Shown: positions 33,521 through 59,092, counted from the first letter of the stretch. The stretch: 64,000 nucleotides of DNA from Candidatus Latescibacterota bacterium (GCA_965261395.1 OZ253462.1:2880001-2944000), one strand, 5' to 3'. The notes: generated by a model from the sequence alone, not told the origin. Program-made: numbers and translations.

Positions 33521-33534
33521 TGCGAGCAGTGAAT

Positions 33535-38791: not shown

Positions 38792-39543
38792 ACCCGTGCC
38801 CGACGAAGACCCGGCAGACCTGATCCGAGAGGTGGAGGAATGACACAAGTTACCGACGAGCTCCTCGACCAGATGGTCCAGGCCATTGTCGAAGAGGTTG
38901 ATCCCGAACAGGTGATCCTCTTCGGCTCTCGCGCTCGCGGCGACGCGCGGGAAGATTCGGATGTCGATCTGGTGGTGGTGGTGGCCGAGCCGTTTGGACA
39001 AGACCGGAGCCGGTACCAAGAGGCGGTCCGACTGTACAAGGTGCTCGCCGGATCGGGCGTTTCAAAGGACATCCTCGTTTATAGCCGCGACGACGTCGAG
39101 TACTGGCGCGACTCCCTCAACCACGTCTTGGCGCGGGCGTTGCGGGAGGGGAGGGTGCTCTATGAGCGACCTTAAATGTGTGCGCGTGCTGTTGGCCGCC
39201 GCAGACCGCGACATCGAGATACTGCAACTCATGCACGATTCCACCGGCGGCCCCGATGAGATTTTCGGCTTCCACGCGCAACAAGCCGCCGAGAAGTCGC
39301 TCAAGGCGTGGCTTGCTCTCCTTGGAGAGGTGTACCCGTTGACGCATGATCTCGATGCCCTCATCGAGAGGCTCTCCGGGAGAAATGCCGATGTAGGCAG
39401 GTATCGGGGGTTGACGGTCTACAGTGCATTCGCCGTTCAGTTTCGATACGAGGGAATGACCGAGGGGATCTCCATTGATCGCGAACACGCTCTGCATCTT
39501 GTGAGTGCCCTTCTGCAACAGGTCCGGCGGATGGCGGAGGTGG
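38792..39543 (+). repeat. repeat A copy 1 (752 bp: hsdM-like stub + MNT + HEPN)
   Basis: Near-identical to 46264-47015; 4 substitutions seen by eye. Confidence 0.95.
38840..39175 (+). CDS. minimal nucleotidyltransferase (MNT) antitoxin
   Basis: ILFGSRARGDAREDSDVDL. Confidence 0.92.
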   Translation: MTQVTDELLDQMVQAIVEEVDPEQVILFGSRARGDAREDSDVDLVVVVAEPFGQDRSRYQEAVRLYKVLAGSGVSKDILVYSRDDVEYWRDSLNHVLARALREGRVLYERP

Positions 39544-39551
39544 AGGAATGA
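39162..39551 (+). CDS. HEPN domain protein
   Basis: FHAQQAAEKSLKA, THDL, AVQFRY; start MSDLK overlaps the MNT 3' end. Confidence 0.92.
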   Translation: MSDLKCVRVLLAAADRDIEILQLMHDSTGGPDEIFGFHAQQAAEKSLKAWLALLGEVYPLTHDLDALIERLSGRNADVGRYRGLTVYSAFAVQFRYEGMTEGISIDREHALHLVSALLQQVRRMAEVEE

Positions 39552-39883
39552 CACAAGTTACCGACGCGCTCCTCGACCGGATGGTCCAAGCCATAGTCGC
39601 TGAGGTTGGTCCCGAGCAGGTGATCCTCTTCGGGTCTCGCGCTCGTGGCGATGCACGAGAAGATTCGGATGTCGATCTCATTGTGGTGGAGGCCGAGCCG
39701 TTTGGGGAGACTCGGAGCCGACGTTTAGAGGCCGCCCGCGTTTACGAGGCGGTGGCCGGTTTCGACGCTTTGACGGACATCTTGCTTTATAGCCGCGACG
39801 AGGTCGAGCACTGGCGCGACTCAGTCAACCATGTCCTTGCCCGTGCATTACGAGAGGGAACGGTGCTATATGATCGACCTTGA
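39548..39883 (+). CDS. MNT antitoxin, second paralog
   Basis: ILFGSRARGDAREDSDVDL. Confidence 0.92.
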   Translation: MTQVTDALLDRMVQAIVAEVGPEQVILFGSRARGDAREDSDVDLIVVEAEPFGETRSRRLEAARVYEAVAGFDALTDILLYSRDEVEHWRDSVNHVLARALREGTVLYDRP

Positions 39884-39923
39884 TGAAGCGCGTGCGCTCA
39901 TTCAAGCTAGCCCTTTTCCGTAG
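39870..39923 (+). pseudogene. 5' stub of a HEPN gene
   Basis: MIDLDEARALIQA, homologous to MSDLDKARTLLEA at 48735 and in the same overlap position. Confidence 0.75.
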
Positions 39924-40045
39924 ATTATTCCGCATAACTCAACAGCTTCTTAAGCCTCACCTAGCGCATGTGTGTGCCTCGATACGCTCGCTCGCTAGCT
40001 GCCACTCGGAGAGTGGGTGCGGCTCTTTCTTTGGAGGGATTCACC

Positions 40046-40648
40046 ATGCACAAAGTAACCATAGCCCTTGCCACTTTCGCCGTTTTCTTGGGCTGTGAAG
40101 TAGGTAGTCCTACTTCGCCTAGCGCAGCCAAGAGTACCAAGGCTGCGGCCGAACAATGTCCGATGCCGATTTTGGGCATAGTGGGAACATGGGCGGGGCA
40201 GGGTTCTACTATCTTGGAGAACATCAACACCGCCGACACGTTGTGGATAGAGTTTGCTCCCGATCCGAACCCAGCGGGCGAACCGGGCGTAACGTATTAC
40301 GACTACACGCTGCTTTCGTACTATTCCCCGTCTGATGGGGATGATCTAATACTTGCCGAACTTGCCGACATGCTAGGGCTTACCGACTTGGGCTTGCCCA
40401 GCCTTTTAGAGGAGCGACGCGGTAAAATGGGCGTGTACTATGCGGACGGTGGTAAGTGGGCGTTCAACCATACTGTAACCTATATCCGAAGTTGGAACCT
40501 AGAAGAGTATGAAGAGTGGGGGGGGCGGTCTGAGCCGAGTTGGGGCCATGAGATAAAGATGTTTGATGGGTGGCTTGTTTTACAGAGGACGTGGTATGAC
40601 ATATGGGACGAGGACTATGAGTATGAGTATGAGCGCGTTGACGAATGA
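40046..40648 (+). CDS. hypothetical lipoprotein
   Basis: GGAGG RBS, MHKVTIALATFAVFLG-C lipobox; acidic and Trp/Tyr-rich. Confidence 0.7.
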   Translation: MHKVTIALATFAVFLGCEVGSPTSPSAAKSTKAAAEQCPMPILGIVGTWAGQGSTILENINTADTLWIEFAPDPNPAGEPGVTYYDYTLLSYYSPSDGDDLILAELADMLGLTDLGLPSLLEERRGKMGVYYADGGKWAFNHTVTYIRSWNLEEYEEWGGRSEPSWGHEIKMFDGWLVLQRTWYDIWDEDYEYEYERVDE

Positions 40649-40761
40649 CTGACCGCTTGCCCATACACGTTGATTCGCGGCTAAGGAACTGCTCCAAAGG
40701 ATGTAGCGGCAGGCGAAGGTGCTCTCTCACGTAGAGACGAAACCGAGGTAATTTCAGTAAT

Positions 40762-43700
40762 ATGTCCTTGAGCACAACAAAGCTGGACAACCAAGAAAAA
40801 CTCAAGCGAGAGCTACATAACGCCCCAAAAGCGTCTAAGCTTGAACATCTCGCGGCGGCTCTGATTGGTCGTCTTCTCGATGTGCCGATTGCGGTTGCCA
40901 AGTCTGGCTTTCAACATGGCGCAGATGCTGGTCCGGCTGGACAGCAAGGGCGACGATTTCGGGTGGAATGCAAGAAGTATAGTGATAACAGTAGCTTGAG
41001 TGAACGAGAGCTATTGGGGGAGATCGACCAAGCACTAGCGCGGGATGAGGCCCTTGAAGCTTGGGTGCTGGTTGCAACTTGTAGCGTTTCAGAACAGCTC
41101 CGGCAATCGCTTAATCAGCATGGAGAACGGCTAGGCGTTCCTGTCCTGATTATCGATTGGATAGATCACGAAGTGGCACCGCTTGCAGCATTGTGTGCAT
41201 TCGCTCCTGATTTGGTCGAGAAAGAATTCTCAAAGGAAGCTGGCGCGGCGGCTTGCACTCTTCAACCCATATCAGAGCAGGCAATCGAAAGGTTACGACG
41301 CGACCTGCAATCTTGGTGCTTGGGGTTTGAAGCAATACGGACACGCTCTCACGATAAGCTCAATAAGATTTGGAACTTGCCGCAAGAATCGAAGGCTGCA
41401 ATCGGACAAGACGCGGCTGGGGGCGCTCAAAATAAGAAGGTCAAACGCAGCGCAGTGCATGAGGCACTGAATGCGTGGTGGCAAAGACCGGCTCAGGATG
41501 GTGCCCCGGCTGCTGTAGTCGGATTGGAAGGGAGTGGCAAGACATGGGCGACTTTCCACTGGTTGATCGACAGTAAGGACACGCAACCAATTGTTCTGAT
41601 AACTCCATCCTCTGCGGTAGCCGCCATTGGTAATGTCTCCGAAACCATCGTGAAGCAACTCCTAGCGGATAGCCTTCACGAGATGAGCGGGATACGGAAT
41701 CGGGAGCACTGGCTCCGTCGGCTCGATTATCTGCTTAAACGTCCGGTCTGTGAAGGACCAGTCCTGACCATATTCTTCGATGGCCTGAACCAAGAGCCTT
41801 CCGTTCAATGGCTACGACTCTTGCAAGTTTTGCAAGGTGAGACGTTTGCGGAACGAGTACGGGTAATTGTCAGCACTCGCAATCATCATTTTGAAGAAAA
41901 GTTGTCGGAGCTTCGTGGCCTCTCTGTGCTAGCCAAGCGGGTTGACGTAGATCTCTATAATACAGCACCGGGGAGCGAACTCGACCAAATGCTTGAGTTC
42001 GAGAATCTCACGCAGGCCGACTTGCATCCTGATGTGATTGAGTTGGCGCGTAACCCCCGCCTTTTCAAGCTAGTAGTACGTTTCCGAGAAAGGCTGGTCG
42101 AGGCGGGTCAAATAACGGTACATCGGCTGCTTTGGGAGTATGGACGTGACACTTTCGGAGAGCGGACCGGCGAGTCGTTCAGCGAAAACGAGTGGAGGGA
42201 CTGGCTGAAAGAAATTGCTCAGAAACGTCGGAACGGTATCAAAGAATACTCAGAAAGGTCGATCGGCAAGATGGTGAATCGCCCAGACCTCACTAAAAAC
42301 GAAGTGTATGCACGGTTCAGCGACATTATTGACGGTCGGTTCGCTACACGCGATCCATCAGGCGATCTACAACTCACTCCTGCGGTTATTGCACATGCCC
42401 TCGGCGTTGCGCTTCTGAATCATCTTGATCAAGTAACTTCTCCAAAATTCGACAATTTGAATGCCGAGTTGACGAAATGGCTTGATCCCATCGCGGGTCT
42501 TGATGAACAAACGGAAATCCTGCGTGCGGCGGTGTCAATTTTGGTAGAGCAGGGATGTGCGGCAAAAGCACCCGTCCCCGGAGTGCTCGTCACGGCATGG
42601 CTACAAAGCCAGAATATACCGGACGAGCATCGCCAAGAACTTGTCGATCTTGCTCCGCAACTTCCGAATGCTCTACTCGACGCGGTTGAGCATTCGGACA
42701 GTCACGCTCACGATTCCGCTAGATTTTGGGCCGTGAACGCGCTGAGTACAATCCCGCGAGACGATAGCACAGTCCTTGATATGATTGTCAAACGATCCTG
42801 CGGCTGGCTGAGCATTGTCTCTTGGGACGGTGATAGGCAGTCGGATAGGCTTAAACGCCTGATTGGTAGCGATACCTTGGGTCCGATTACGGTCGTCGGC
42901 GTAGAACTCGAACTAGTTGATCAGTCCTCTGGCTTTCTGAAAGATGTGGTCCCGTCAATTGTCGAAGGTTTTCCATTGGCTAATGCCCTGCCGATTTTCG
43001 AGACAGCGACCGTTGCGTTGGAGGTGGAAGATAGTATCTATCGCTGGGATGGCCTGACGTGGCTCTGCTTACTCAATGAAGTTGACCCCGACGAAACGGC
43101 GACGGCTTTACGTGCCTTGTCAGAAGAAATCAGTTGCCGCCAGCCGGAACAGGGTGTACATCCGGATCTTCCGAAGCGTATCGCTGCACTGCTGCTTCGG
43201 CTGACAGGTCAGGAGGGGGACGAGGACGCCGCTGTGTCTATGGATCCCGGCATTGACCGTCCACCCACTTATGAGGAAGACTACCTTCCTCAGCCCGGCC
43301 GAAGCTGGTTTCCGCTGGAGCGGCGACATGCACAGAGCGTCCTCGCCGACACGGAACTGTCTCTGCATTCCCGCATACAGCGGACCGCAGAACTATGGCT
43401 TGATCCGAATTTTGAACCGCCAGCGAGCTTTGTTGCAGAAGTTCGCGCCGCAGCGACCCACATTGATGTTGGGAAGCTGAACCGACACAGCATACTCACC
43501 CCTGAAGATCATGACTTTGAAAGACTGGAACCGGTGCTGGCTCGATGTGCGCCGGACCTGCTTGCGGATCTAATCCGCCGCAAGATGCGGAGTATGGCTA
43601 CCTGTCCGCCGGAGTCCCGGTACCGGAGTGCTATCCATGCGACCGGGTATCTGGTGCTAGCAGGCGAGGATGAGGCGGTGGCAGCGAGAGCGTTACGGCT

Positions 43701-45318
43701 CAGAAACTGCCTGAAAATCCTTGGCGGCCTTCGCACGGCTGCAAAAGCGGTGGGCTGCTTCGCTCGCCTTGTCCGCTACTTTTTCTCTCGTGCTCAGGGC
43801 ACACCCGGAATTTTCAGACAGCTTTTCAGCGGCGGCAAAGACGGAGACGATGATGCCTCTGCCGCCAATGATCTCCTATTGGTGGAGATACGAGATCTGG
43901 ATGCGCAGGCCCAATTCGACGAATTGATCCATGCGGACTTGCAGTCCATCTCGGACAACGCTGAGATCCTCGCTATGATCCTGCGTCCCCCGACATCGGC
44001 TGATGTCGATGTCCTGATCGCTCGCCATGCCGATGGCTCACTCAAACAGCAACGCGATCTGCTCACCTTATTGTCGATCCTCCCGGTTGAACTCACGGAC
44101 ACGGCTTGGTCATGGGTTGAAAGATGTGCGAAATGTCAAGACAATGATTCTCGCGGATTTGCATTCCGTATTCTAACCCATGCTGACCCAGTGCGGTTCG
44201 GTCAAATGCTTGAGACTGACGGTTGGTCTTGGAGTCAGGACGAGCATGACTGGGTCAACTATTACGGAATGGACGCTCTTATCAAGGCCACGCTGGCCCT
44301 TCCTTTCGATCAGTTAGCACCACGGCTTGCACCTTGGCGGCTATTGCAAGCTGCTCGGACGCGTGGTCCCGACCCTACCGAGGTACGACTGGCGGCTGAA
44401 CGCTTCGGTCAATTACTCGATGGGAGGCATCGCTCGAAAGCTATCTCCTACTGCGCGGAAGATTTCGTACCTGTTCTGCAACATACACCGGATATCGTCG
44501 AACAGTGGCTTGAGGGCTTTTGCGAGCCTACGGCTGATTTCCAGCGTCGTGTTCTTTTTGCTGAAAAGGCTTTTCTTGCACTCTGCGAGGCTCTCCTTGT
44601 ACACGACCCCGAGCGAGGCGTACAGTTGTGGAAAACCTTATGGAAAACCCTGAGCGTCACCATGGTACCGCGATACATCAGCACCGCAGACCTCTTACAC
44701 ATAATCTTTCGCGTTCCAGATTCACCGGCAGTAACGGTACTCCGAGACGAACTAGCTGGGCTAGAACATTGCCATACTGATCAGGCACTATTCAATCTGG
44801 CAATTGTTGCGTCCTGTAACGGTAAGGACGATTGGCTCGCCACTCTCATTAAGCAAGATCAAACATCGAAATTCGCTTGGCGACGGAAACGCGCCATAGT
44901 CCTCGCGGGCTTTACCGTGAACAATACGCTACCGGTTGAGGATGCTTGGCCTAGTGGAGAAATCAAAACAGGCTACGCCAATCTTGCTCAGAAAGCAGCT
45001 CGTTATAGGTGGGCCGAGGGATGTGCCCGCCACTGGTGGCGAGCCTACCTTGCGTCCTCTGATCCGACTAAGGCTTATGCCGCTTGGGTTTTGTTTTTGC
45101 GCTCGGCGGATCGTCGTTGTTGGGTATGGATGAACCAAGATATTGAAGCCGCACAAGAATCGGACGACTTCTTCAAGCTCAAGGTGATCCATGCTGGACT
45201 TAATCAAGGAAAGCTAGAGAATGCTTTGAAGAAGCGCGAGGACAAGCTCGACAAGAACTTTTTAGACCGTCGGATTTTTGCGGGTGTAGGTCCTTGGCCA
45301 AAATACGTACCGCGTTAG
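40762..45318 (+). CDS. PD-(D/E)xK nuclease + STAND/NACHT-like NTPase + long helical sensor (Avs/bacterial NLR-like defence protein)
   Basis: GFQHGADAG...FRVECKKY, Walker A GLEGSGKT, Walker B IFFDGLNQ, RVIVSTR, ARNPRLF; 1518 aa; lower GC than host genes. Confidence 0.8.
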   Translation: MSLSTTKLDNQEKLKRELHNAPKASKLEHLAAALIGRLLDVPIAVAKSGFQHGADAGPAGQQGRRFRVECKKYSDNSSLSERELLGEIDQALARDEALEAWVLVATCSVSEQLRQSLNQHGERLGVPVLIIDWIDHEVAPLAALCAFAPDLVEKEFSKEAGAAACTLQPISEQAIERLRRDLQSWCLGFEAIRTRSHDKLNKIWNLPQESKAAIGQDAAGGAQNKKVKRSAVHEALNAWWQRPAQDGAPAAVVGLEGSGKTWATFHWLIDSKDTQPIVLITPSSAVAAIGNVSETIVKQLLADSLHEMSGIRNREHWLRRLDYLLKRPVCEGPVLTIFFDGLNQEPSVQWLRLLQVLQGETFAERVRVIVSTRNHHFEEKLSELRGLSVLAKRVDVDLYNTAPGSELDQMLEFENLTQADLHPDVIELARNPRLFKLVVRFRERLVEAGQITVHRLLWEYGRDTFGERTGESFSENEWRDWLKEIAQKRRNGIKEYSERSIGKMVNRPDLTKNEVYARFSDIIDGRFATRDPSGDLQLTPAVIAHALGVALLNHLDQVTSPKFDNLNAELTKWLDPIAGLDEQTEILRAAVSILVEQGCAAKAPVPGVLVTAWLQSQNIPDEHRQELVDLAPQLPNALLDAVEHSDSHAHDSARFWAVNALSTIPRDDSTVLDMIVKRSCGWLSIVSWDGDRQSDRLKRLIGSDTLGPITVVGVELELVDQSSGFLKDVVPSIVEGFPLANALPIFETATVALEVEDSIYRWDGLTWLCLLNEVDPDETATALRALSEEISCRQPEQGVHPDLPKRIAALLLRLTGQEGDEDAAVSMDPGIDRPPTYEEDYLPQPGRSWFPLERRHAQSVLADTELSLHSRIQRTAELWLDPNFEPPASFVAEVRAAATHIDVGKLNRHSILTPEDHDFERLEPVLARCAPDLLADLIRRKMRSMATCPPESRYRSAIHATGYLVLAGEDEAVAARALRLRNCLKILGGLRTAAKAVGCFARLVRYFFSRAQGTPGIFRQLFSGGKDGDDDASAANDLLLVEIRDLDAQAQFDELIHADLQSISDNAEILAMILRPPTSADVDVLIARHADGSLKQQRDLLTLLSILPVELTDTAWSWVERCAKCQDNDSRGFAFRILTHADPVRFGQMLETDGWSWSQDEHDWVNYYGMDALIKATLALPFDQLAPRLAPWRLLQAARTRGPDPTEVRLAAERFGQLLDGRHRSKAISYCAEDFVPVLQHTPDIVEQWLEGFCEPTADFQRRVLFAEKAFLALCEALLVHDPERGVQLWKTLWKTLSVTMVPRYISTADLLHIIFRVPDSPAVTVLRDELAGLEHCHTDQALFNLAIVASCNGKDDWLATLIKQDQTSKFAWRRKRAIVLAGFTVNNTLPVEDAWPSGEIKTGYANLAQKAARYRWAEGCARHWWRAYLASSDPTKAYAAWVLFLRSADRRCWVWMNQDIEAAQESDDFFKLKVIHAGLNQGKLENALKKREDKLDKNFLDRRIFAGVGPWPKYVPR
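43703..43825. mobile_element. 123-bp MITE related to the IS5-family element at 52366, inserted in frame
   Basis: Ends gaaactgcctgaaaa and ttttcagacagcttt (12/15 and 13/15 to the IS inverted repeat); flanked by TCA at 43700-43702 and 43826-43828. Confidence 0.85.
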
Positions 45319-45505: not shown

Positions 45506-45623
45506 AAATTTGGACTAGGAACGCCGGAGGTATAAGATGACTAATGTTGACAAAAACGTCGAAATTAACTTGCCCCTCGAAAACCTCATTGACACCCTCT
45601 GCAAACTGCCTCCTGACACTCTG
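45506..45623 (+). repeat. repeat B copy 1 (118 bp: RBS + 5' end of the antitoxin)
   Basis: Identical to 54010-54127. Confidence 0.95.
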
Positions 45624-45845
45624 AGGGAAGTCAAACAAAGGATTGAAAGGCAACTCCAAGAACCTGATCAGTCTCAGGAGCCGTTGGATGACCTCCATGA
45701 GGACGACTTGTGGGGCTTGGGAGGGAATCGAGAAAGTGCCGACGGTGCGGATTCTCCGGCCTCGATAGAGGAGGTGCTCAGAATCACATCTAAGTTCAAA
45801 GGATCCATGGCAAAGATCGTGAGCGAAGAACGAGATGAACGATAA
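45537..45845 (+). CDS. putative antitoxin of the downstream PIN toxin
   Basis: Small acidic ORF ending SMAKIVSEERDER, translationally coupled (TAATG) to the PIN gene. Confidence 0.7.
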   Translation: MTNVDKNVEINLPLENLIDTLCKLPPDTLREVKQRIERQLQEPDQSQEPLDDLHEDDLWGLGGNRESADGADSPASIEEVLRITSKFKGSMAKIVSEERDER

Positions 45846-46315
45846 TGGCTTTCTGTTTTTTTGACACGAGTGCTCTGATTAAATACTACCACGACGAGTT
45901 GGGAAGGCAGAAAGTCGTCGATCTCGTTGATAATCCAAACAATCGCATTTTTATTTCGCGGCTTGGACTGATAGAATGGCATTCGGCTTTCTTCCGTCTC
46001 ATGCGCATGAATACGTTTACCCAAGACGAGTTTCAGACGATACGGACTCGATTTCTTGCAGATATTCGGCAGCGGAAATTTCTTATTCAGCCTTTTGAAC
46101 TCACACACCAAAACCAAGCTGTTCGCCTGCTCGCCCGTTATTCTTTCACCGAAAGGTTACGGACCTTAGACGCTCTTCAGCTTGCCGTTGCTCTTCATGT
46201 AAACAGCCATACACCTCTCGATTATTTTGTTTGTGCTGATAGCCCCTTCTGTCAGATAGCCGCACCCGTGCCCGACGAAGACCCGGCAGACCTGATCCGA
46301 GAGGTGGAGGAATGA
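45845..46315 (+). CDS. vapC: PIN-domain (VapC-like) toxin with its C-terminus replaced by repeat A
   Basis: FFDTSALIKYY, LRTLDALQLA, FVCAD. Confidence 0.88.
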   Translation: MAFCFFDTSALIKYYHDELGRQKVVDLVDNPNNRIFISRLGLIEWHSAFFRLMRMNTFTQDEFQTIRTRFLADIRQRKFLIQPFELTHQNQAVRLLARYSFTERLRTLDALQLAVALHVNSHTPLDYFVCADSPFCQIAAPVPDEDPADLIREVEE

Positions 46316-47015
46316 CACAAGTTACCGACGAGCTCCTCGACCAGATGGTCCAGGCCATTGTCGAAGAGGTTGATCCCGAACAGGTGATCCTCTTCGGCTC
46401 TCGCGCTCGCGGCGACGCGCGGGAAGATTCGGATGTCGATCTGGTGGTGGTGGAGGCCGAGCCGTTTGGACAAGACCGGAGCCGGCACCAAGAGGCGGTC
46501 CGACTGTACAAGGTGCTCGCCGGATCGGGCGTTTCAAAGGACATCCTCGTTTATAGCCGCGACGACGTCGAGTACTGGCGCGACTCCCTCAACCACGTCT
46601 TGGCGCGGGCGTTGCGGGAGGGGAGGGTGCTCTATGAGCGACCTTAAATGTGTGCGCGTGCTGTTGGCCGCCGCAGACCGCGACATCGAGATACTGCAAC
46701 TCATGCACGATTCCACCGGCGGCCCCGATGAGATTTTCGGCTTCCACGCGCAACAAGCCGCCGAGAAGTCGCTCAAGGCGTGGCTTGCTCTCCTTGGAGA
46801 GGTGTACCCGTTGACGCATGATCTCGATGCCCTCATCGAGAGGCTCTCCGGGAGAAATGCCGATGTAGGCAGGTATCGGGGGTTGGCGGTCTACAGTGCA
46901 TTCGCCGTTCAGTTTCGATACGAGGGAATGACCGAGGGAATCTCCATTGATCGCGAACACGCTCTGCATCTTGTGAGTGCCCTTCTGCAACAGGTCCGGC
47001 GGATGGCGGAGGTGG
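46264..47015 (+). repeat. repeat A copy 2
   Basis: Near-identical to 38792-39543 (offset 7472). Confidence 0.95.
46312..46647 (+). CDS. MNT antitoxin (copy of 38840-39175)
   Basis: GSRARGD...DSDVDL. Confidence 0.92.
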   Translation: MTQVTDELLDQMVQAIVEEVDPEQVILFGSRARGDAREDSDVDLVVVEAEPFGQDRSRHQEAVRLYKVLAGSGVSKDILVYSRDDVEYWRDSLNHVLARALREGRVLYERP

Positions 47016-47026
47016 CGGAGGCGTGA
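46634..47026 (+). CDS. HEPN domain protein (copy of 39162-39551)
   Basis: FHAQQAAEKSLKA, THDL. Confidence 0.92.
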   Translation: MSDLKCVRVLLAAADRDIEILQLMHDSTGGPDEIFGFHAQQAAEKSLKAWLALLGEVYPLTHDLDALIERLSGRNADVGRYRGLAVYSAFAVQFRYEGMTEGISIDREHALHLVSALLQQVRRMAEVAEA

Positions 47027-47851: not shown

Positions 47852-47920
47852 AGACACCTGCGATCATTTTCACCGACGACGGCTGGCGTCTTAGATCTGT
47901 AAATTCATAGAGGAGACCAA

Positions 47921-48331: not shown

Positions 48332-48412
48332 AACATCTACTCAACCTTTTTCTCTACTCGCCGGACGCTTCCAATGACACCCAATGAGCCAAAAGCCCCC
48401 ACCGCCAGAGGA

Positions 48413-49170: not shown

Positions 49171-52100
49171 CTTCGATCCTCGAAATTCCCCCTCTTTCAT
49201 TTTTAATTAAACAGAAATTTGCAGACTGAAATGCGCTTCCTTCCAAACGGACTGAACATTCCAGACGAACTGCTTGAAGCACGCGACCAAGGGAACGTCG
49301 TGTTCCTGTGCGGGGCAGGCGTTTCCTATCCCGCCGGAATGCCAAATTTCTTGGAATTGGCAAAGTATGTGGTCGAAGAACTGGGGGCACCACAAGACGC
49401 GCCCTCGCGTAAGATGCTGTCGATGTGGGACAACGAGGATATACCAGAAGACGCACGTCCTTCGCTCGATCAGATATTCAACCTCCTTCAACAGAAAGAA
49501 TACGCGCCGGGCGAAATTATTGACTACCTAATTGCGAAGCGGCTGAGAACTAAGCCTAGGGCTTGCGTCTCGACACACGAGACGATCTTACGCCTGTCTA
49601 AGGGTGCTGACGGCAAGCCTCAGATTGTCACGACGAACTTCGATCTTCTCTTCGAGCGAGCCGCTAACCAAAAATTGAAAACCTATGTTCCGCCAACGCT
49701 GCCCGATTTGGCCAATGGACAGCCGTTAAATGGACTTGTCTATCTCCACGGTCGGATTAATTCTAGGATCAAACGAGGTGAAGGTCGACAGGGATTAGTC
49801 GTAAGTAGTTCGGATTTCGGGCGGGCCTACTTAGCAGAGGGCTGGGCGACGCGCTTCATTCGCTACCTCCTCGATCAGTACACCGTTATTCTGCTTGGAT
49901 ATTCCGCAAACGATCCACCCGTCAGATACTTGCTTCAGGGTCTGCACTCCCAGCGACGTGGGAGTCGGGCGAAGCTCTTCGCGTTCGACCGTGGGACTGA
50001 AGAAGAAATCCAGCCACGTTGGCGAGATAGCGGAGTTCGGGTGCTCGCTTATCCTGCGACAGACGATTCCCACTCTGCCTTATGGGACACCCTCTCAGCG
50101 TGGGCAGATCGCGCAGACGACCCCTTGGCGTGGCGGCAACGAATCGTTGATCTAGCTAGAAAAGGACCGAGAAATCTTGAGCCATACGAACGCGGTCAGG
50201 TCGCATCGCTCGTCAGAACCGAAGTCGGTACAAAGCTGTTCGCGGATGCCGATCCGCCTCCGCCCGGAGAATGGTTGTGCGTGTTCGACCGTAATTTTCG
50301 GTATGGGGAGGTTGGTATTCAATCAGATGATTCACAGCCCGCCTTTGATCCGTTTATTGAATACAGCTTGGACGATGATCCTCCTCGTCCATCAGAGAAT
50401 CGGCTTCAGGCTGATCCGCTGGGTGACGATCTTTTATCGCTGAAACCTACGGATCGCCGCATCAATGATGATACAAGACTGGCAAAGAATGGCCGCCATT
50501 GGACCGAGCCTTTATCGTTCAGATTGCTTCACCTTGCTCGATGGATCGCAAAGATAGCACACGAGCCGGTCGTGCCGTGGTGGTCAGCGCAGTACTCGAG
50601 CCTTCATCCCAAGTTGCTTGACGAGATTGAACGGCGTGTCGAACGCGCTGTTGACGAGCTACCAAGTTTGGCCCGATTGACTTGGAGATTGTTGATCGAA
50701 AAATTCCACACGGCCCCCGATGATCCCTATGGACTTAGAGTGTATTGGGACAAAATGCGCCAACGGATTGAGACCGAGGGTTGGACTAACAGTTTCCTCC
50801 GAGAATTCGAGCGAAACGTAATGCCCTATATAGAGACTGAGGCACCTTCACGCCTTGATGTCTCTCGCCCCCCAGATAGAGATTGGTCGCAGCTTCGTCT
50901 GAACTACATTGCGAGATTCAAGGTCGCGTTCCCGACCCCCATCGGACAACGACCCGAAATCCCCAATGATGTTCTACCGAAGATTTATCAGATTGTCCGC
51001 AGGCACTTGGAATTGGCGACGGGACTGCTGGCGGATATCGGAACTAGCTACTGGAAAACCTCGACTTTCTACCCGGAAGACAGGACCGGAGAGAACTATA
51101 TCAGCGGCGAGAGCCCTTGCGCTTATCTCTTTTGGTTCCGCGTCTTGTTCGACCAGATGGTTAAAGCACATCCAGAGTTGGTTAGGGCCGACATGGCTCT
51201 CTGGCCAAAGGAAGATCCCTTTTTCTTTAACAAACTCCACCTATACGCCGGGACCTTCGATGTCCTTTTCTCTGGAGATGCAGTTGGGGATGGACTCCTA
51301 TCGCTTTCTGATAAGGGATTCTGGGAAAAGGATTACCGCCGGGAGTTGCTTCATCTCTTAAAGCGTCGCTGGCATGAGTTGCCTTCGGACAAGCGCGAAC
51401 TGGTGGAACGGCGCTTGATCGATGGCCGAGCAAGATACGACAGTGAATCGGAAGAGGACTTTGAGCAAAGGTGTTCAACCGAGTCTGCTATAGTCTTGGA
51501 TTGGCTTATAAACCAAGGCTGCGAGCTTGGCAGGGAAGCACGTTCAGTCCTGCCTAGTCTCCGCAGTGCTGATCCACGTTGGCGTCCAGAATGGGCCGAA
51601 ATTGCTGATGAAAGTCGTGAGGGTAGAGTAGTATCTATTGAAACAGACTCCGATCCATCTCTCATTATTGACGCTCCGATTAGTCAGATTATTCCATTGG
51701 CTAGACAGCATACAGGACGTGCGTTCCCTGAACCTACTGTTTATAGCCCCTTTGATGGGTTAGTCGAACAACATCCTGTCAGAGCCGTTGCCGCCCTGAC
51801 GCACGCAGCGCGACGAGGCGACTATCCGGCGGAATTTTGGTGCTCTGCACTTCAAGAGTGGCCGGATGAAGCGCGACATCGCCTTAGCTGGCTGTTCGGT
51901 GCGAGGCTGGCACGGCTCCCCTCGAAAACTGTAGTCGAATTGCGAGACGATGTGTTTGGCTGGTTGCGGAAGCATTTGCCGAAGCTGGCCGCACAGGATC
52001 AACCTCGCGCCCTGAGCATATTCGATGTACTGCTCGAAAAGCTATTCACAGGTGAGGAAGAGGTGGAGCAGAGCGGAGAGCATCAAGATCGATCGCGTAG

Positions 52101-52365
52101 GACACACAACTACGTAGTAAGCGCACCCGTCGACAAGGCGACCGTATTGCTTCTCGAGCTTTTGAATTCACAAGGCCCTAGAGTAGGATCGAGCATTCCG
52201 CCAGAAATCAAATCGAGGCTCGAACGCCTATTCGACGCTCCCGGCGAAGGCGCTGATCACGCGGTTTACGTCGTTGCTAGTCAACTCAGGTGGCTCAATG
52301 ATATTGACCCGGAATGGGTTCGTGCTACAATTGTGCCTTGGTTCGACTTGGAGCATCCGGTGTCA

Positions 52366-53295
52366 GAAGCCGTCTGAAAACTCTAATTTTCATTTGATTC
52401 GTTTAAGTAGCAAGTGGATCATGGCAATCTGGATCAAGGCTTCACTATGGCGGGTCAAGACCTCATAATCTCTCGCATGTCGGCGAAAATTCATCAACCA
52501 CGCCAAGGTGCGCTCGACGACCCACCGGCGTTTAACTAGGGTAAATCCGGAGCCTTGTTTGGCGACGACTTCCAAGTCTATTTTGTGCGTCTTTTTTTGG
52601 TTGGCCACCCACGTTCGGATGGCCTCGCCTTGGTAGCCGCCATCAACCCACAGCTTGCGTAACCGAGCCACTCCGGCGGCCTTCAAGCGGGTCAACACCT
52701 GCTTCAAACCCTCTCGATCATCGACATCGGCGGCGGTGACCACCACCTGTCGAAGCAAACCCGACGTGTCCACCAACAAATGCCGTTTGCGGCCTTTGAT
52801 CTTTTTACCGGCGTCATACCCGGTTGTTTTACCATGCGTTGCGGTCTTAATCGTCTGACTATCGACGCAGCCAGCCGACGGCATCGCCGCCCGGCCGCTC
52901 TGGCGGCGTTCCCGCTTGGTCAACCGATCCAACACCGGCGGCCAGACCCCTTGCAGGCTCCAGCGACGAAAGTAATCATACCCCGTTTTCCACGGCCCAA
53001 AACAAGCAGGCAACAAAGCCCAAGGACACCCCGTCTTGTTCAAATATAAAAGGCCGTTGACGATTTGGCGTCGATCCCGCGGCGGCCGACCCGGACCGTG
53101 AAGCCGCCAGCGCGGCGCGGGCAGCAACGGTTCGATCCGCTGCCATTGTCCATCGGTTAGATCGGTGGCATATTGCCTACGCGGCGTACTCATTATACAA
53201 GCCTTTCTGTTCAGATTTTGTGGTGAAACCTGAATATGGCTCGATGAGTACGCCCTTTCAAATTCGGCTACATCAGAGGGTTTTCAGACGGCTTC
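52366..53295 (-). mobile_element. IS5-family insertion sequence (IS1031-like), 930 bp
   Basis: Perfect inverted repeats gaagccgtctgaaaa and ttttcagacggcttc; TCA target duplication at 52363-52365 and 53296-53298. Confidence 0.95.
52390..53193 (-). CDS. IS5-family DDE transposase
   Basis: YATDLTDGQW, VDSQT, GYDAGKKIKGRKRH, DGGY, RWVVERT..W...RR. Confidence 0.96.
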   Translation of the reverse strand: MSTPRRQYATDLTDGQWQRIEPLLPAPRWRLHGPGRPPRDRRQIVNGLLYLNKTGCPWALLPACFGPWKTGYDYFRRWSLQGVWPPVLDRLTKRERRQSGRAAMPSAGCVDSQTIKTATHGKTTGYDAGKKIKGRKRHLLVDTSGLLRQVVVTAADVDDREGLKQVLTRLKAAGVARLRKLWVDGGYQGEAIRTWVANQKKTHKIDLEVVAKQGSGFTLVKRRWVVERTLAWLMNFRRHARDYEVLTRHSEALIQIAMIHLLLKRIK

Positions 53296-54009
53296 TCAGA
53301 ATCCGCATGGAACGGCTTCTCGGACGATTGGCTACCAAAACCGGAACTATTCTCGCTGATCAAATCCGACTTCTTGAACGCGATTGTTCATGCAGCGAGG
53401 TGGAACTGGGACGATCATTCTCTTCAAAAACTGCATGAATTTCTAGTTCTCGGCTGCTTCTGGCACCAAGACTATGGTCCCTATATCACCTTTGAGGAGA
53501 CCCGCCAAGTCCTACAGAATACCAACGACAGTGGCCGCGCTCATAGCCTCTGGTTTTTCACCCGAATCATCGATAAAAACCACGCTTGGCGACGCTTTGG
53601 CAAGCCCTTCTTGGAAAGGGCTTGGCCGAGGGAGACTCGTTTCCAGACGGAGGAGACATCGCAGCATCTTGTAGCGTTAGCAAAAGGGGCTGGCGACTTC
53701 TTCCCCGAGGTGGTCCAAACTATTCTTCCCTATCTGGTTCCAATGTCCCGGAACGTCGGCTTCGTGTCTTCCCTAGCTCGGCAGAGTGATGAAGAGACGG
53801 GTGGATTGCAAACGCGGTTTCCAGATGCTACGCTGATGCTCATCAATAAGATAATTCCAGACGATCCTGACCAAGTGCCATACGACTTGGATTCGTTGAT
53901 TGAGATGATTGCAGAAGCCAAGCCAGGCCTTCGCCAAGATAGCCGATGGCGGCGGTTGAAGGCCCTCACACTCCGCGAGTAAATCGCACCAAATTCTATG
54001 ACACGACCG

Positions 54010-54317
54010 AAATTTGGACTAGGAACGCCGGAGGTATAAGATGACTAATGTTGACAAAAACGTCGAAATTAACTTGCCCCTCGAAAACCTCATTGACACC
54101 CTCTGCAAACTGCCTCCTGACACTCTGGTGGTATGGCGAGCGGCTGGAGGAGCATGAAGACATCAACAGCGGCGACTTTATTTATATCCCCGCCGGCATC
54201 CCTCACCTTCCCTACAATCCCAGCGAGACGGAAACCTGCACTGCTGTGATCGCCCGGACGGACCCCAACGAACAAGAGAGCGTTAAACTCTTACCCGAAC
54301 TAGACGGGATACACTGC
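54010..54317 (+). repeat. repeat B copy 2 (54010-54127) fused directly to repeat C copy 2 (54128-54317): chimeric antitoxin-5'/cupin-3' remnant
   Basis: Matches 45506-45623, then 48142-48329. Confidence 0.93.
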
Positions 54318-54348
54318 GGAGCCATCATTTCGAGATAGGGGTTTCCCA

Positions 54349-54528: not shown

Positions 54529-54725
54529 TAGAATCCGCTCGTGCAGCGCATTCTCTGTACGACGGCCGCCGCAGCCGCAGTCCGAGTTCGCCGCCTGACC
54601 TGCCTTCTCGACCCGCCTCCGGGGCCGGCTCTACCGGGCGGGCCTTTCCGTGCCTCGTCGACTCGAGGCGAAGCTACGCTGGAATCCAGTCAACCAGGGG
54701 TGTGTTTCGCTCCCAGCGCCGCCGA

Positions 54726-57455
54726 TCAATCCGGCTCATTGGACCCCATGGCCCGCTGAAGGGCCTGGTAGTTCTCGTTCGCCCGTTGGAAGTGCGGGTG
54801 CTCGTGCCCGGTCTGGCGACGAAAGGTGTCGAAGATTTCCAGAGATCGCCGCATCAACGGCTCGGCTTCCTCGCTCCGGTGAGTGACCTGTAGCAGCGTC
54901 GCCAAGTTGTTCAAGCGGGTCGCCACAGTTGGGTGTTGCTCGCCGAAGGCGGCCACGTCAATCTCCAGCGCACGTCGCATCAGCGGTTCGGCTTCCTCGA
55001 TCCGGTTGGTGGCCAGCAGCAGTTGCACCAGATTGTTCAAGCGGGTCGCCACGTTCGGGTGCTGCTCGCCGAGGGCGGCCACGTCGATCTCCAGCGCACG
55101 CCGCATCAGCGGCTCGGCCTCTCCGAGTCGGTTGGTGCGCTTTAGCAGTTGCGCCAAATTGTTCAAACGAGTCGCCACGTTCGGGTGCTGCTCGCTGAAG
55201 GAGGCCACGTCGATTTCCAGCGCACGTCGCATCAGTGGTTCGGCTTCCTCGATCCGGTTGGTGTCCAGCAGCAGAGTTGCCAAATTGTTCAAGCGGATCG
55301 CCACGGTTGGGTGCTGCTCGCCGAAGGAGGCCACGTCGATCTCCAGCGCACGTCGCATCAGCGGCTCGGCTTCCTCGATCCGGTTGGTGTCCAGCAGCAG
55401 AGTTGCCAAATTGTTCAAGCAGACCGCCACGTTCGGGTGCTGCTCGCCGAGGGCGGCCACGTCGATTTCCAGCGCACGTCGCATCAACGGCTCCGCTTCC
55501 TCGATGCGGTTGGTGTCCAGCAGCAGAATCGCCAAGTTGTTCAAACGAGTCGCCACGTCCGGGTGCTGCTCGCCGAGGGCGGCCACGCCGATTTCCAGCG
55601 CACGCCGCATCAGCAGTTCGGCCTCTCCGAGTCGGTTGGTGCGCTTTAGCAGTTGCGCCAGTTCGTTCGAAGCCCATGCGACAAGCTTCGCATTGGCGAT
55701 TGCCGTTGCCTCCGCAAGCGCATGGCGCTGCTGCTCCTCGGACTCCTCCCAGCGTGCGATTTCCATCAGCACCGCCGCAATTTTCAGGCGCTGCGCGATT
55801 CGCGCCTCGGAACTGCCCACGCTTTCCAGGGTATCTCGCAGAAAAGCCAGTCTGGCCTCGGAGAACGTACGCAGAGTCAGCTTTTCCCCCATCTCCGCGA
55901 GCCGGTGTGCAAACTCCTCGAGCTCGCCGCTTCGGTGCATCTCCCAGCACGCGATCATTTCCTCGATTTCGGAGAGATAGTCGGGAGCGGAAAAAGTGCT
56001 GTTGACAATGCGGGCAATCGACCGGCTCACGCCGTCTCCGGCCAGGGGCGCGGCTTCCAGCACGTAGCTCACCGTCTGCTCGACATCTCCACGGCGGGCA
56101 TAGATTCTGGCCATGTCGAACTTCGCGATCGCTCGCTCCCCTACGTCGCCGACTTCACTCAGGTAGTCGAGGGTCCTTTCCGCGTCGACACTGCCTTTTT
56201 CGACAAGTTTCTTGCGCAAAATGCGGCGTTTCTCTTCGCGGGCATCGATGCTCGGGTAGAAGAGACTGAAGAATTCCAGCAGGAACGGCAGGCGTTTGCG
56301 TGCGCCGCGGGAAAGATTCATCGCGAGCCAGATATCGAAGAATCCCTCGCGAATCGTGTAGAGGCGCGAACGCCGGTCTTGCGGGTGCCGGTCTGCGCGG
56401 AGGTAGTGGGCATCGGTGAGACGCTTGAGCAGCGACGACGTCTCCTGCTGGCTCATCCGGATTCGCGCGGCAATGGCGGCCGGGGTTTTTTCCTGGTCGC
56501 GCATGCTCGCCAGACATTCCAGCAGCGCGCGTTGGCCGGGAGGCAGATCGTTCAACCGGCCCTGATAGAACGGCGAGATCCGGTCGAGCAGCAGTTGGAA
56601 CTGATCCTGCACCCGGGTGATCGACTCGTGCGCGATCAACTCGTAGAGCATCATTGTCAGGCGCGGGTTTCCACCCGTCATGCGGTAGAGGGCCTGCAGG
56701 CGAGGACGCATGCCCTCGAAGTTTTCGAGAATGTCCTCGTGTTTTTCCCAACGGAGGTTGAGCCGGATGACTTCAACCGTTTCCTCGAAACTCAGGTTCT
56801 CCAGGATCTGAATGTCGAAGAAATCGTAGAATGGCTGCCCGACATCGGTGATGGCGTCGAAGTGTAGCGGCGCGGTGGCCAGCAGCAGGCAGCCGTTGTC
56901 GGCCATGAAGAACTTGCGCAGCGAGCCGAGGTCGTTCTTGTCACGGATTTGCCGGGTAAAGATCTCGCCGAGGTTCTCGAGCATGATGAGCAGTGTGCGA
57001 TTGCGCTGGCGATTCTGTTCGCGGATCGCGGGCGCCAGGATATCGACAACCCGGGCGTTGTCTTCCTCGGTCTGCACCCTGGCGAACAACTCCGCCCACA
57101 GCGGTTCGTCTTCGACGACATCTTTCAGGATTTCGCAGACGCCGATAAGGAAATCGGCGAAGGACAATGTCCGATTCGATTCTTCCGGGAACCGGACAAC
57201 AACGACGCTCGCACTGAGCGTTTCATCCGATTGGACGGTATCTTCAATACATGAGAGCAGGTGGGTTTTGCCGATTCCGCGCGGCCCGATAAACAGCAGA
57301 TGGTGTTTCGATTTTCTGCCCACGGAACCCCGTAAGGATTCGATGGCATTGTCGACGATATGTTCACGCGCGACGCTCGTATCGCGCAGGCGCTCGGGGC
57401 TGGTTACTCCGGAGCGATACAGTCCGATGTTCGAATCGAGGGCCGGTTCAGGCAT
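54726..57455 (-). CDS. STAND-like AAA ATPase + wHTH + seven 42-aa TPR (kinesin-light-chain type) repeats
   Basis: GPRGIGKT, LIMLEN, TGGNPR, wHTH TPAAIAARIRMSQQETSSLLKRL, repeats LNNLA..L..TNR.EEAEPLMRRALEI. Confidence 0.88.
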   Translation of the reverse strand: MPEPALDSNIGLYRSGVTSPERLRDTSVAREHIVDNAIESLRGSVGRKSKHHLLFIGPRGIGKTHLLSCIEDTVQSDETLSASVVVVRFPEESNRTLSFADFLIGVCEILKDVVEDEPLWAELFARVQTEEDNARVVDILAPAIREQNRQRNRTLLIMLENLGEIFTRQIRDKNDLGSLRKFFMADNGCLLLATAPLHFDAITDVGQPFYDFFDIQILENLSFEETVEVIRLNLRWEKHEDILENFEGMRPRLQALYRMTGGNPRLTMMLYELIAHESITRVQDQFQLLLDRISPFYQGRLNDLPPGQRALLECLASMRDQEKTPAAIAARIRMSQQETSSLLKRLTDAHYLRADRHPQDRRSRLYTIREGFFDIWLAMNLSRGARKRLPFLLEFFSLFYPSIDAREEKRRILRKKLVEKGSVDAERTLDYLSEVGDVGERAIAKFDMARIYARRGDVEQTVSYVLEAAPLAGDGVSRSIARIVNSTFSAPDYLSEIEEMIACWEMHRSGELEEFAHRLAEMGEKLTLRTFSEARLAFLRDTLESVGSSEARIAQRLKIAAVLMEIARWEESEEQQRHALAEATAIANAKLVAWASNELAQLLKRTNRLGEAELLMRRALEIGVAALGEQHPDVATRLNNLAILLLDTNRIEEAEPLMRRALEIDVAALGEQHPNVAVCLNNLATLLLDTNRIEEAEPLMRRALEIDVASFGEQHPTVAIRLNNLATLLLDTNRIEEAEPLMRRALEIDVASFSEQHPNVATRLNNLAQLLKRTNRLGEAEPLMRRALEIDVAALGEQHPNVATRLNNLVQLLLATNRIEEAEPLMRRALEIDVAAFGEQHPTVATRLNNLATLLQVTHRSEEAEPLMRRSLEIFDTFRRQTGHEHPHFQRANENYQALQRAMGSNEPD
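54800..55685 (-). repeat. array of seven 126-bp near-identical coding repeats (TPR)
   Basis: ttgttcaa...cgccac recurs every 126 bp (~54907, 55033, 55159, 55285, 55411, 55537). Confidence 0.93.
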
Positions 57456-58677
57456 AGTATTTCCTCCACCACAGTTTCAGCACACCGCTCGCGAAGTCGT
57501 AGATCCCCTCTTCGACTTCGACGATGTAGAAATCGTTCTCTAGGTCGAGCAATATTTGATTGAATAATTGTTTGCGCTCATGCGCCGGAAGTTCGATGCC
57601 GCTGTCCACCAACAAGCGATCCGTTTCTTGCAACAGGGATGCACGCTTCAGCCCGGATTCGCTCACACTGATTTGCCCCAACAAGGCGTAGGCGATCGAG
57701 CGTTTGGGATCCGTATAGTATTGCTGGATTCGCGAATAGTAGTGTTGCAACCGTGTGCGCGCACCTGAACTGACAATCAACGCGTCGAAGATGGCATCGA
57801 CATCCGCCGCGAAGATTTTACGTTGCTCCTTTTTCCATAACCTGTAGAGATCCTGGGTTGCCATCTGCATGAAGAGCGGGATCGGACGACCCAGTCGAAC
57901 GCTCATCTGCCGCGGAACCGCCTCATCGTATGGGACGCCTCGCCCGCTAAGCATTTCGTTCACGAAAACCTCAATGTCACCGTCAGTAAGTTGAGGCAGG
58001 GGCACGTCTTCAAGGTCGTTGATGAGATCCACCTGTCCGAGCGCGTCCAGGGTTCCTGCGAGATTGACGGAGCCGCCAACCAACCAGCGGATCGCATCTT
58101 TTGCGGGTGCTGGATTTAATCGCTGGGTGCGAAACCAGGCGAGAAACTCACGCAGCAACACGGCATCCTTCCGGGACAAGTTGAGCAGCATGTCAGGCAA
58201 CTCGTCGACGATGAATAGAATTGGAATATTCATGTTGCGAGCCTGTTGGAGAAACGTGTCGCCATGCTGCCGCCAGTTTTCGCGCCAGTTGGGATCGCTT
58301 TCGCGTAGCGCGAGTTTGAATTCACCGACACCGATCTCCGCGACCAGCCCCAGCGCGCCAGTTACAAGCTTCCAGCCAGCGGCAAGTTGGTCCCGCACTA
58401 AAGCCGGATGCGCATCATGGAAAGCGTCGAGCAGCACCTGGAAGAAATCGGCTGGATGGGTCAAGTCCTGGACGTTGATTGAAACCACCGAGAAATTGTT
58501 CCGGGGATGGTCGCGCAAGTGATCCATGACGCTGGTCTTGCCTGTTCGTCGAGCAGCCGTGAGCACCAGATGCCTCGTGCGCAATGTTTCCCAAAGCTCC
58601 GTGAGAAACTCCTCGCGAAATCGCAAGTCCACTGGGTCGACGGGAGCGCCGGTGTAGAATTCGGGGGTGCTTTTCAT
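57448..58677 (-). CDS. AAA+/STAND-like ATPase overlapping the downstream TPR-ATPase
   Basis: Walker A AARRTGKT, Walker B LFIVDELP, VGGSV, C-terminal YDFASGVLKLWWRKYY. Confidence 0.85.
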   Translation of the reverse strand: MKSTPEFYTGAPVDPVDLRFREEFLTELWETLRTRHLVLTAARRTGKTSVMDHLRDHPRNNFSVVSINVQDLTHPADFFQVLLDAFHDAHPALVRDQLAAGWKLVTGALGLVAEIGVGEFKLALRESDPNWRENWRQHGDTFLQQARNMNIPILFIVDELPDMLLNLSRKDAVLLREFLAWFRTQRLNPAPAKDAIRWLVGGSVNLAGTLDALGQVDLINDLEDVPLPQLTDGDIEVFVNEMLSGRGVPYDEAVPRQMSVRLGRPIPLFMQMATQDLYRLWKKEQRKIFAADVDAIFDALIVSSGARTRLQHYYSRIQQYYTDPKRSIAYALLGQISVSESGLKRASLLQETDRLLVDSGIELPAHERKQLFNQILLDLENDFYIVEVEEGIYDFASGVLKLWWRKYYA

Positions 58678-58787
58678 TTTAACATCACTTCGGTTGTAAA
58701 ACAGAATCGTTTTGTAAATAAAATACGACGGTATTGATGTATGTCAAATTCGTTTTAGGGATGTGCAGAGGCACGTCCCGTGCCCTG

Positions 58788-58862
58788 CCGTCCCTCGACG
58801 CGCCGGCCACGCCGGAGGCGATCCTGCGCGCGGCGGACGCGATGCGGGTCTGCGGCTCCTGA
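58788..58862 (+). pseudogene. 3' stub resembling the xanthine dehydrogenase molybdopterin subunit (xdhB)
   Basis: PSLDAPATPEAILRAADAMR, typical XdhB C-terminal LDAPATPE motif. Confidence 0.55.
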
Positions 58863-58884
58863 CCCTGATGCAGTCCGGACGGTG

Positions 58885-59056
58885 GGAGGAGCATGAAGAC
58901 ATCAACAGCGGCGACTTTGTTTACATCCCCGCCGGCATCCCTCACCTTCCCTACAATCCCAGCGAGACGGAAACCTGCACTGCTGTGATCGCTCGGACGG
59001 ACCCCAACGAACAAGAGAGCGTTAAACTCTTACCCGAACTAGACGGGATACACTGC
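58885..59056 (+). repeat. repeat C copy 3 (cupin 3' end)
   Basis: Near-identical to 54146-54317. Confidence 0.93.
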
Positions 59057-59065
59057 TAGACAAAG

Positions 59066-59092
59066 GCGGGAAGGGAAGGTGCTCTATGAGCG
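59066..59092 (+). repeat. 27-bp relic of the MNT/HEPN junction
   Basis: gcgggaagggaaggtgctctatgagcg versus gcgggaagggcgggtgctctatgagcg at ~48715. Confidence 0.8.

Follow-up and report, generated by a model that had tools for sequence, protein, structure and literature searches.

Insertion with long target duplication has been described by Furuta, Abe & Kobayashi (2010, PMC2853133) for restriction-modification (RM) systems compared within species, and sequential displacement by homology-facilitated illegitimate recombination by Kirchberger et al. (2017, PMC5361080) for effector-immunity arrays of the Vibrio type VI secretion system and for Rhs loci. Defence genes are also found in core defence hotspots such as cDHS1/2 of Pseudomonas aeruginosa (Johnson et al., 2023, PMC10250203) and in hotspots free of mobile genetic elements (Oliveira et al., 2017, PMC5635113), for which homologous recombination in the flanks has been proposed as the exchange route. 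Here, we analysed a 64,000-nucleotide stretch of Candidatus Latescibacterota bacterium (GCA_965261395.1 OZ253462.1:2880001-2944000; hereafter the window, with positions counted from its first letter), in which positions 38,792 to 59,092, between glnD and a pcfJ-like gene, hold three interlocking families of direct repeats (A, B and C) among toxin-antitoxin and defence genes. A first-pass annotation had taken this locus for an integrase-less recombinational cassette system; we conclude that it is an unusually rich example of a known scar type and not a new machine.

As in the RM insertions of PMC2853133, defence genes lie between long direct repeats of variable length, no mobility gene is involved and an empty site exists in a relative; the repeats described there, like the present ones, often span a start or stop codon with the target gene kept intact, and the species concerned are mostly naturally competent. 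In contrast to those RM insertions, the cargo consists of Dsr1, a STAND nuclease and a TPR/ATPase gene pair, the targets are small accessory genes within a hotspot, the events are stacked and overlapping, and the empty alleles come from sister species. Of the four marks of that class, a repeat longer than 30 bp around an insert of less than 20 kb is present twice (A with 756 bp enclosing 6.7 kb, C with 170 bp enclosing 10.6 kb), a single repeat at the empty site is seen for C1xC3 and A1xA2 (not for B, C1xC2 or C2xC3), and no mobility gene serves the insert, the only candidate being an IS5 element inside Dsr1 with its own ends. RM cargo, the fourth, is absent from the locus and occurs at other repeat-bracketed sites of the same genome. 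The locus thus shares all marks of long target duplication except RM cargo, works like that kind of insertion and extends it.

Orphaned 3′ pieces downstream and an integron-like look without an integrase are shared with the arrays of PMC5361080, and the single homologous anchor and illegitimate other end described there are proposed for the present locus as well. In those arrays, unlike here, the orphans are immunity genes of selective value; the present fragments have no evident use, and several different genes would serve as anchors. Variable defence cargo between fixed core genes without a mobile-element scar recalls the hotspots of PMC10250203 and PMC5635113, but unlike in these within-species surveys, whose hotspots are not known to contain internal repeats, the hotspot is genus-wide and preserves the order of events in its internal scars. 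Integrons and XerC/D pdif modules are likewise arrays in which the order of small toxin-antitoxin and defence genes varies. The defining features of these modules, an integron integrase with attC sites or dif-like sites, are lacking here; module ends are variable, and genes lie on both strands. A non-exhaustive search of the literature since 2016 found no paper on an integrase-less toxin-antitoxin hotspot recombining via direct repeats. PMC10250203 names as an open question how core defence hotspots can arise in the absence of mobile elements; here, 24 species-level alleles, with matching empty and filled states and stacked scars, make the order and source of events readable. Furthermore, the locus is a source of defence candidates (an Mrr-like nuclease-STAND gene, the TPR/ATPase pair and a seven-gene kinase cluster), although the organism is known here from metagenome-type assemblies only, which limits bench work.

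Repeat families and recreated alleles

Self-BLAST of the window with shuffled controls confirmed the three repeat families proposed in the first-pass annotation, and gene calls together with Pfam gave the gene order as described there (Table 1). Repeat A, which comprises a whole MNT-HEPN pair, is 756 bp long and 99.3% identical between its copies (five substitutions). Repeat B, the leader and 5′ end of the small gene preceding PIN, spans 124 bp at 98.4% identity (45500-45623 and 54004-54127), including 118 bp at 100%, and the C copies (170-188 bp) contain the 3′ half of a cupin gene. C1 is 95.7% identical to C2 (54128-54315) and 94.7% identical to C3, differing from them at 8-9 of 170 sites, and C2 and C3 are 98.3% identical, differing at three sites. 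The A1/A2, B1/B2 and C2/C3 pairs (98-100% alike) have lineage-private letters in common. The longest exact repeat in the interval measures 399 bp, compared with a maximum of 16 in codon-shuffled copies (n=100), and no further copy of A, B or C was found in the rest of the 6.55-Mb single-contig genome.

Crossovers between repeat copies, computed in silico, recreated alleles of relatives in two cases. The C1xC3 product equals the allele of sister genome G022 over 1,094 bp without gaps at 97.3% identity, and the A1xA2 product matches G006 over 1,334 bp at 89.3%, the glnD-MNT-HEPN arrangement being present also in G013. No counterpart of the B1xB2, C1xC2 or C2xC3 product was found in any relative, and B1xB2 recombination, which had been proposed to excise the sirtuin gene, would remove the cupin and GNAT genes. 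The native right flank is kept by A2 and C3, the left copies being joined to cargo, and the cupin end in C3 is the native one common to most relatives. This pattern of A and C is the footprint of an insertion duplicating or stranding its target. The most plausible reading of B2 is that it forms the rear end of the fragment with which Dsr1 arrived: in G010, Dsr1 and B lie side by side, and contigs of relatives from three sequencing runs show Dsr1 continuing into the B leader.

None of nine STAND, Dsr1 and TPR/ATPase copies in relatives is bracketed by a repeat pair of at least 100 bp and at least 90% identity, and no pair of at least 100 bp at 95% identity or more occurs in 25 congener loci. 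Fragments of GNAT or cupin genes form pairs at 92-93% in L006, L013 and L015, and cupin 3′ fragments recur in L009, L010, L012, L013 and L016. The earlier proposal that recombination takes place in or beside shared small genes is supported by the C1xC3 and A1xA2 products, which match real alleles, whereas the unbracketed copies and unfixed fragment ends lend no support to a system with a dedicated repeat pair for every cargo. Stabilisation of cargo by toxin-antitoxin pairs also found no support: A1xA2 excision would leave one whole MNT-HEPN pair, HEPN3 carries a frameshift and PIN a truncation, no pair accompanies the TPR/ATPase cargo, and intact pairs that belong to each cargo and would be lost on its excision were not seen. 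The repeats are not dedicated cassette ends and are probably by-products, which could still serve RecA for later loss.

Junction calls were crude, and 59 junctions entered the motif tests. Among 77 crude calls, 46 had no overlap, 18 overlapped by 1-8 bp and 13 by 12-30 bp, giving at most 8 bp in 64, and no donor molecule was identified. Truncated B copies have seven different end points within 60 bp and cupin fragments six start points; module ends differ between genomes, with no fixed recombination site of the kind expected for pdif modules or tandem islands. The junction motif search revealed neither a recurring att-like site nor recurrent palindromes, and the integron core motif lies within 15 nt of only two of the 59 junctions. 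CGGCGG occurs at 12 junctions when both strands are counted, which is reached by 1% of 200 shuffles, and five of the 12 are homologous HEPN 3′ ends; on the plus strand it occurs at four (p 0.029), and GGYTGG lies near four (p 0.074). As a recombinase site CGGCGG was rejected and read as repeatedly counted HEPN ends together with G+C-rich microhomology. In 11 of 13 loci the GNAT 3′ flank is joined via CGGCTGG to the cupin middle (eight), the HEPN end (one) or the glnD end (two), and this motif, too, is read as reused G+C-rich microhomology and not as a recombinase site. Reuse of G+C-rich microhomology is a known trait of illegitimate ends. The glnD-end motif had no match in a scan of Joint Genome Institute metagenomes.

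Profile searches of window and genome, together with the junction search, bore out the initial impression that no integrase, attC site or tRNA is visible. No integrase was identified among 26 window proteins scanned against Pfam, the window contains no tRNA, and no Rfam family was detected in 36000-62000. In the genome, which is 95% complete, three tyrosine recombinases exceed the cut-off, two of them XerD- and XerC-like; the one closest to the locus lies at a distance of about 670 kb. None of five matches to the integron integrase profile TIGR02249 exceeds the cut-off (two full proteins reach 128.5 and 102.7 vs 265), and the genome profile search found no resolvase. With no IntI over the cut-off and the attC core at so few junctions, an integron was rejected. 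The genome encodes ComEC, DprA and MutS, and Ku was not found in the genome search. Two full-length RecA genes are located at 61827-62603 and 1783324-1784094 of G000.

The glnD-pcfJ interval across the genus

GlnD was found in all 31 genomes of the genus. Thirty downstream regions were retrieved and 24 comparable alleles counted, the window included; L023, L024, L025, L026 and L027 (distant, with another context) and L029 and L030 (contig ends) were left out, L006 has no right flank within 20 kb, and gene calls in relatives came from a simple caller that may miss small genes. As predicted by the first-pass annotation, the interval is hypervariable, with different cargos among the same small genes, and far from being invariant among relatives: its length ranges from 442 to 22,362 bp, and the gene order is distinct in all 24 alleles. 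The window interval is twice as long as the longest among the 23 relatives. According to flank alignments, variable DNA in relatives begins at the stop codons of both glnD and pcfJ or a few bases away.

The gene pool includes cupin (18 of 24 alleles), MNT (18), GNAT (13), TPR/ATPase (six) and McrBC (four) genes and, more rarely, STAND (three), Dsr1 (three) and the kinase cluster (two), in addition to VapBC, HigBA and DUF2330. Genes of the MNT-HEPN family are almost restricted to this locus, which holds 29 of their 40 matches in the genus, including all with at least 78% identity. A flank tree of 22 rows, built without L006 and L019, was used to test six modules. For five of them (TPR, McrBC, STAND, Dsr1 and VapBC) the carriers are not clades (p-AU 3e-4 to 7e-101), and the carriers of the kinase cluster form a clade. 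One gene order is mostly kept in relatives, and 10 of 12 reversed pairs oppose the window to the rest. Compared with G022, the STAND and DUF2330 genes are 87% and 85% identical, vs 95-99% for glnD, GNAT, cupin and pcfJ.

Fixed core flanks and variable cargo (Dsr1, McrBC, STAND and toxin-antitoxin pairs) mark the interval between the convergent genes glnD and pcfJ as a defence hotspot of the whole genus, and the window carries its most heavily loaded allele, which reads as three partial locus versions stacked end to end.

The seven-gene cluster occupies the hotspot of two sister genomes (L015 3355-11049 and L018 1828-9525, oriented) and, judged by eye, comprises kinase-like, PP2C-like, radical-SAM-like and ATPase-like genes. 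In G021 (L006 14555-19971, oriented), the hotspot is followed not by pcfJ but by other genes and a block that by eye resembles a type I-C CRISPR-Cas system.

Origin of the stacked repeats

Serial insertion with long target duplication, presumably via homology-facilitated illegitimate recombination, is in our view the probable origin of the locus. The variation, the common gene pool, the recreated empty alleles and the unfixed joins are direct observations. From them, we infer DNA uptake, a donor, a direction and RecA dependence. A strain or species carrying a different locus version would supply DNA that enters the cell, possibly by natural transformation given the presence of ComEC, DprA and RecA. 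This DNA would pair via a gene common to both versions (MNT-HEPN, cupin or the glnD end), its other end joining illegitimately with little or no microhomology and the resident gene end being stranded downstream as a 'repeat'. About three such events would stack three partial locus versions, IS5, the MITE (miniature inverted-repeat transposable element) and small deletions would later decay the cargo, and selection would keep glnD, pcfJ and usually one cupin gene whole. Incoming DNA is favoured because cargo identity lies below flank identity and C1 is split from C2/C3; the near identity of A1/A2, B1/B2 and C2/C3 implies that donors were very close or that copies arose or were converted in place. 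Several points weigh against this explanation. No donor allele identical to any cargo was found, the 98-100% pairs with private letters would also fit in-chromosome duplication or gene conversion, and each event is readable as insertion here or as excision in a relative. Furthermore, the crude junction calls include the 13 overlaps of 12-30 bp and the 12 CGGCGG junctions, competence genes are no proof of transformation, and MutS should limit recombination at 90-95% identity.

The confinement of the MNT-HEPN family to the locus, the recurrent cupin 3′ fragments and the two excision products that equal real alleles could alternatively mean that toxin-antitoxin and cupin genes are selected as reusable homology, by which RecA toggles cassettes in an integrase-free, integron-like manner. 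This is unlikely, since cargo copies in relatives are unbracketed, long pairs of high identity are missing from congener loci, the ends of the supposed landing pads vary, B1xB2 would cost the locus its cupin and GNAT genes, decay affects the pads as well as the cargo, and the same scars occur at unrelated gene ends genome-wide. A genus-wide equivalent of an integron without integrase, in which species trade modules by MNT-HEPN and cupin handles and populations toggle them by RecA, has a similarly small chance of being correct; if it existed, switching between loaded and empty states would make immunity differ from cell to cell. Tandem duplication of a large ancestral array within one lineage, followed by random loss and without incoming DNA, would account for the near-identical pairs with common private letters and for a window that consists of three partial copies of the commonest order and is set apart by 10 of 12 order reversals. 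We judge it improbable: C1 is much further from C2 and C3 than these are from each other, neither Dsr1 nor the TPR pair is present at this locus in the sister genome, both occurring in a separate clade, and cargo identity is far under flank identity. Gene-end duplication is also the footprint of elements integrating in protein-coding genes, and the locus could owe its repeats to site-specific integration by a trans-acting or lost integrase (as in tandem islands, integrons or pdif-like modules), and XerC/XerD are present; however, the varying ends, the scarcity of the integron core, the lack of recurrent palindromes and the absence of a resolvase and of an integron integrase over cut-off in the 95% complete genome render this highly improbable.

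The first-pass annotation itself cautioned that strain variants concatenated in a metagenome assembly could mimic such an array. An artefact of this kind, or an excised circle concatenated at the repeats, would fit the exceptional length of the interval, the presence of relatives with other arrangements in the same runs and the lack of a contig spanning it all, and yet is very unlikely on the following evidence. Read contigs were compared with 39600-54800, with A1, the TPR repeats and C3 outside this stretch. The joins PIN/A2 and B2/C2 and the one before C3 are non-homologous, and a mis-join inside a repeat would not make them. Short-read contigs in runs X20 and X21 bridge several unique joins, holding glnD/A1, A1/MNT2, MNT3-HEPN3-Dsr1 and the C3 flank, and contain a STAND piece of 5,031 bp that shows no differences; these runs may derive from the source sample (X21, possibly also X20) and hence not be independent. 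The C2/TPR join is also bridged without differences in X1, a run from another study. In X21, the contig with A has a depth of 308 vs 145 for STAND, depth being a rough guide only. No contig covers the whole stretch, the joins PIN/A2, B2/C2 and C1/MNT3 are not among the pieces listed, and 18 of 23 runs contain at most 0.26 of the sequence words (17 of these at most 0.14).

Some read observations were not used as evidence. Runs X1 and X2 contain near-identical pieces of A and GNAT while leaving the STAND allele of the window uncovered (8 of 10 bins zero in X2, only pieces 90-92% alike in X1). Such a pattern would be consistent with an empty allele in a closely related strain, but no listed contig joins across. 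Depth is lower to the right than to the left of C1 (about 92-112 vs 125-155 in X21, 4.4-6.4 vs 7.4-8.3 in X20), which could indicate a subpopulation without C1-C3, contig depth not being equal to copy number.

Features of the locus and related sites in the genome

Table 1. Genes, repeats and insertions in and around the glnD-pcfJ interval of the window.
Feature	Position	Strand	Remarks
glnD	36156..38768	+	left core flank; Pfam GlnD_UR_UTase
Repeat A1	38792..39547	+	leader, MNT 38840-39175, HEPN 39162-39551
MNT2	39548..39901	+	82% alike to MNT of A; stub of lost HEPN partner
Predicted lipoprotein gene	40046..40648	+	without Pfam match; one 78% paralog elsewhere in genome
Mrr-like nuclease + STAND/NACHT-like protein, 1518 aa	40762..45318	+	candidate Avs-like defence gene
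MITE-like in-frame insert in STAND gene	43698..43830	.	21-bp imperfect IS5-like inverted ends
Repeat B1	45506..45623	+	leader and 5′ end of 102-aa gene
102-aa gene, inferred antitoxin of PIN	45537-45845	+	
PIN gene	45845..46315	+	native sequence to 46261; new tail read from A2
Repeat A2	46264..47019	+	MNT 46312-46647, HEPN 46634-47026; native right flank as in L002
GNAT acetyltransferase gene	47285..47851	+	in 13 of 24 alleles
18-bp stub of glnD 3′ end before cupin	47877..47894	+	common to sister genome G022
Cupin gene	47921..48331	+	usual glnD neighbour in genus; 3′ half (48142-48329) = C1
MNT3 + frameshifted HEPN3	48374..49125	+	
Dsr1 anti-phage sirtuin gene, split by IS5	49219..53982	+	PADLOC; NCBIfam NF041818 below cut-off
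IS5-family element	52366..53295	-	intact transposase 52390-53193; TCA duplication
Repeat B2	54010..54127	+	truncated 5′ copy of antitoxin gene; 0-2 bp overlap with C2
Repeat C2	54128..54317	+	orphan cupin 3′ half
ATPase (57448-58677) + ATPase-MarR-TPR (54726-57455) pair	54726..58677	-	candidate defence module
Repeat C3 region	58885..59092	+	C3 = 58885-59056, orphan cupin 3′ half
DUF2330-FlgD gene	59187..61043	-	variable interval member, 5 of 24 alleles
pcfJ-like gene	61128..62873	-	right core flank, convergent with glnD

A1 is flanked on its left by glnD, and its 3′ end is fused to MNT2 via a 5-13 bp overlap. C3 retains the native cupin stop, followed by an MNT/HEPN relic flank common to G022. 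Two small elements were identified beside the repeats, a 46-bp element between MNT2 and the lipoprotein gene (39909-39954; two more genome copies at 90-93%) and a G+C-rich, hairpin-like element (54566-54629; two more genome copies), at which sequences are also joined in G010 and several of the read contigs.

The sirtuin corresponds to Dsr1 of PADLOC and NCBIfam (PADLOC E 7e-81 for the N-terminal and 8e-21 for the C-terminal part). The IS5 element that splits it, overlooked in the first-pass annotation, has 16-bp terminal inverted repeats and a duplicated TCA; with 10 copies at 99% identity or more among 23 matches, in addition to an 87% subfamily, the family has undergone a recent expansion in the genome. 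Dsr1 alleles of relatives without the IS element are bridged in runs X21 and X1. The 1518-aa nuclease-STAND protein has no match in PADLOC, Pfam, NCBIfam or PDB; its N-terminus is Mrr-like, and NACHT/STAND-like look-alikes were found in Atlas only. The MITE-like insert in its gene (about 130 bp, in frame) is absent from L001 and L004, and no full second copy exists in the genome. No specific PADLOC match was obtained for the TPR/ATPase pair. Decay is also evident in the small genes: a 5-bp deletion near 48877 shifts the frame of HEPN3, the second MNT is without its HEPN, and PIN lost its native C-terminus at the A2 join. The stubs following HEPN at 47026-47102 and 49122-49190 resemble the N-terminus of type I HsdS, an unproven likeness for which neither the stub after A2 nor that after HEPN3 yielded a PADLOC match, and the MNT-HEPN pairs may derive from a type I RM operon.

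Upstream of glnD (32129-35954), a trio of imelysin, di-haem oxidoreductase and barrel-like genes is probably involved in iron uptake.

Elsewhere in the genome, local, non-dispersed repeat pairs are direct in 91 cases and inverted in one; some of the direct pairs are paralog arrays, and many consist of a gene end and an orphan copy. In 16 of 24 bracketed intervals, picked by hand and without a random control, a PADLOC match (E <= 1e-15) was found, and whole systems bracketed in this way include BREX, type I RM, two type II RM, Septu, Hma and PsyrTA. Repeat-bracketed BREX, type I and II RM, Septu, Hma, Ppl and PsyrTA genes are located at L035, L037, L039, L045, L048, L052, L053 and L054 of G000. 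In addition, L050, L051, L057, L042 and L046 of the same genome contain bracketed large genes (1057+436, 1070, 433+1761, 583 and 802 aa) without PADLOC match, which are candidates for undescribed defence genes.

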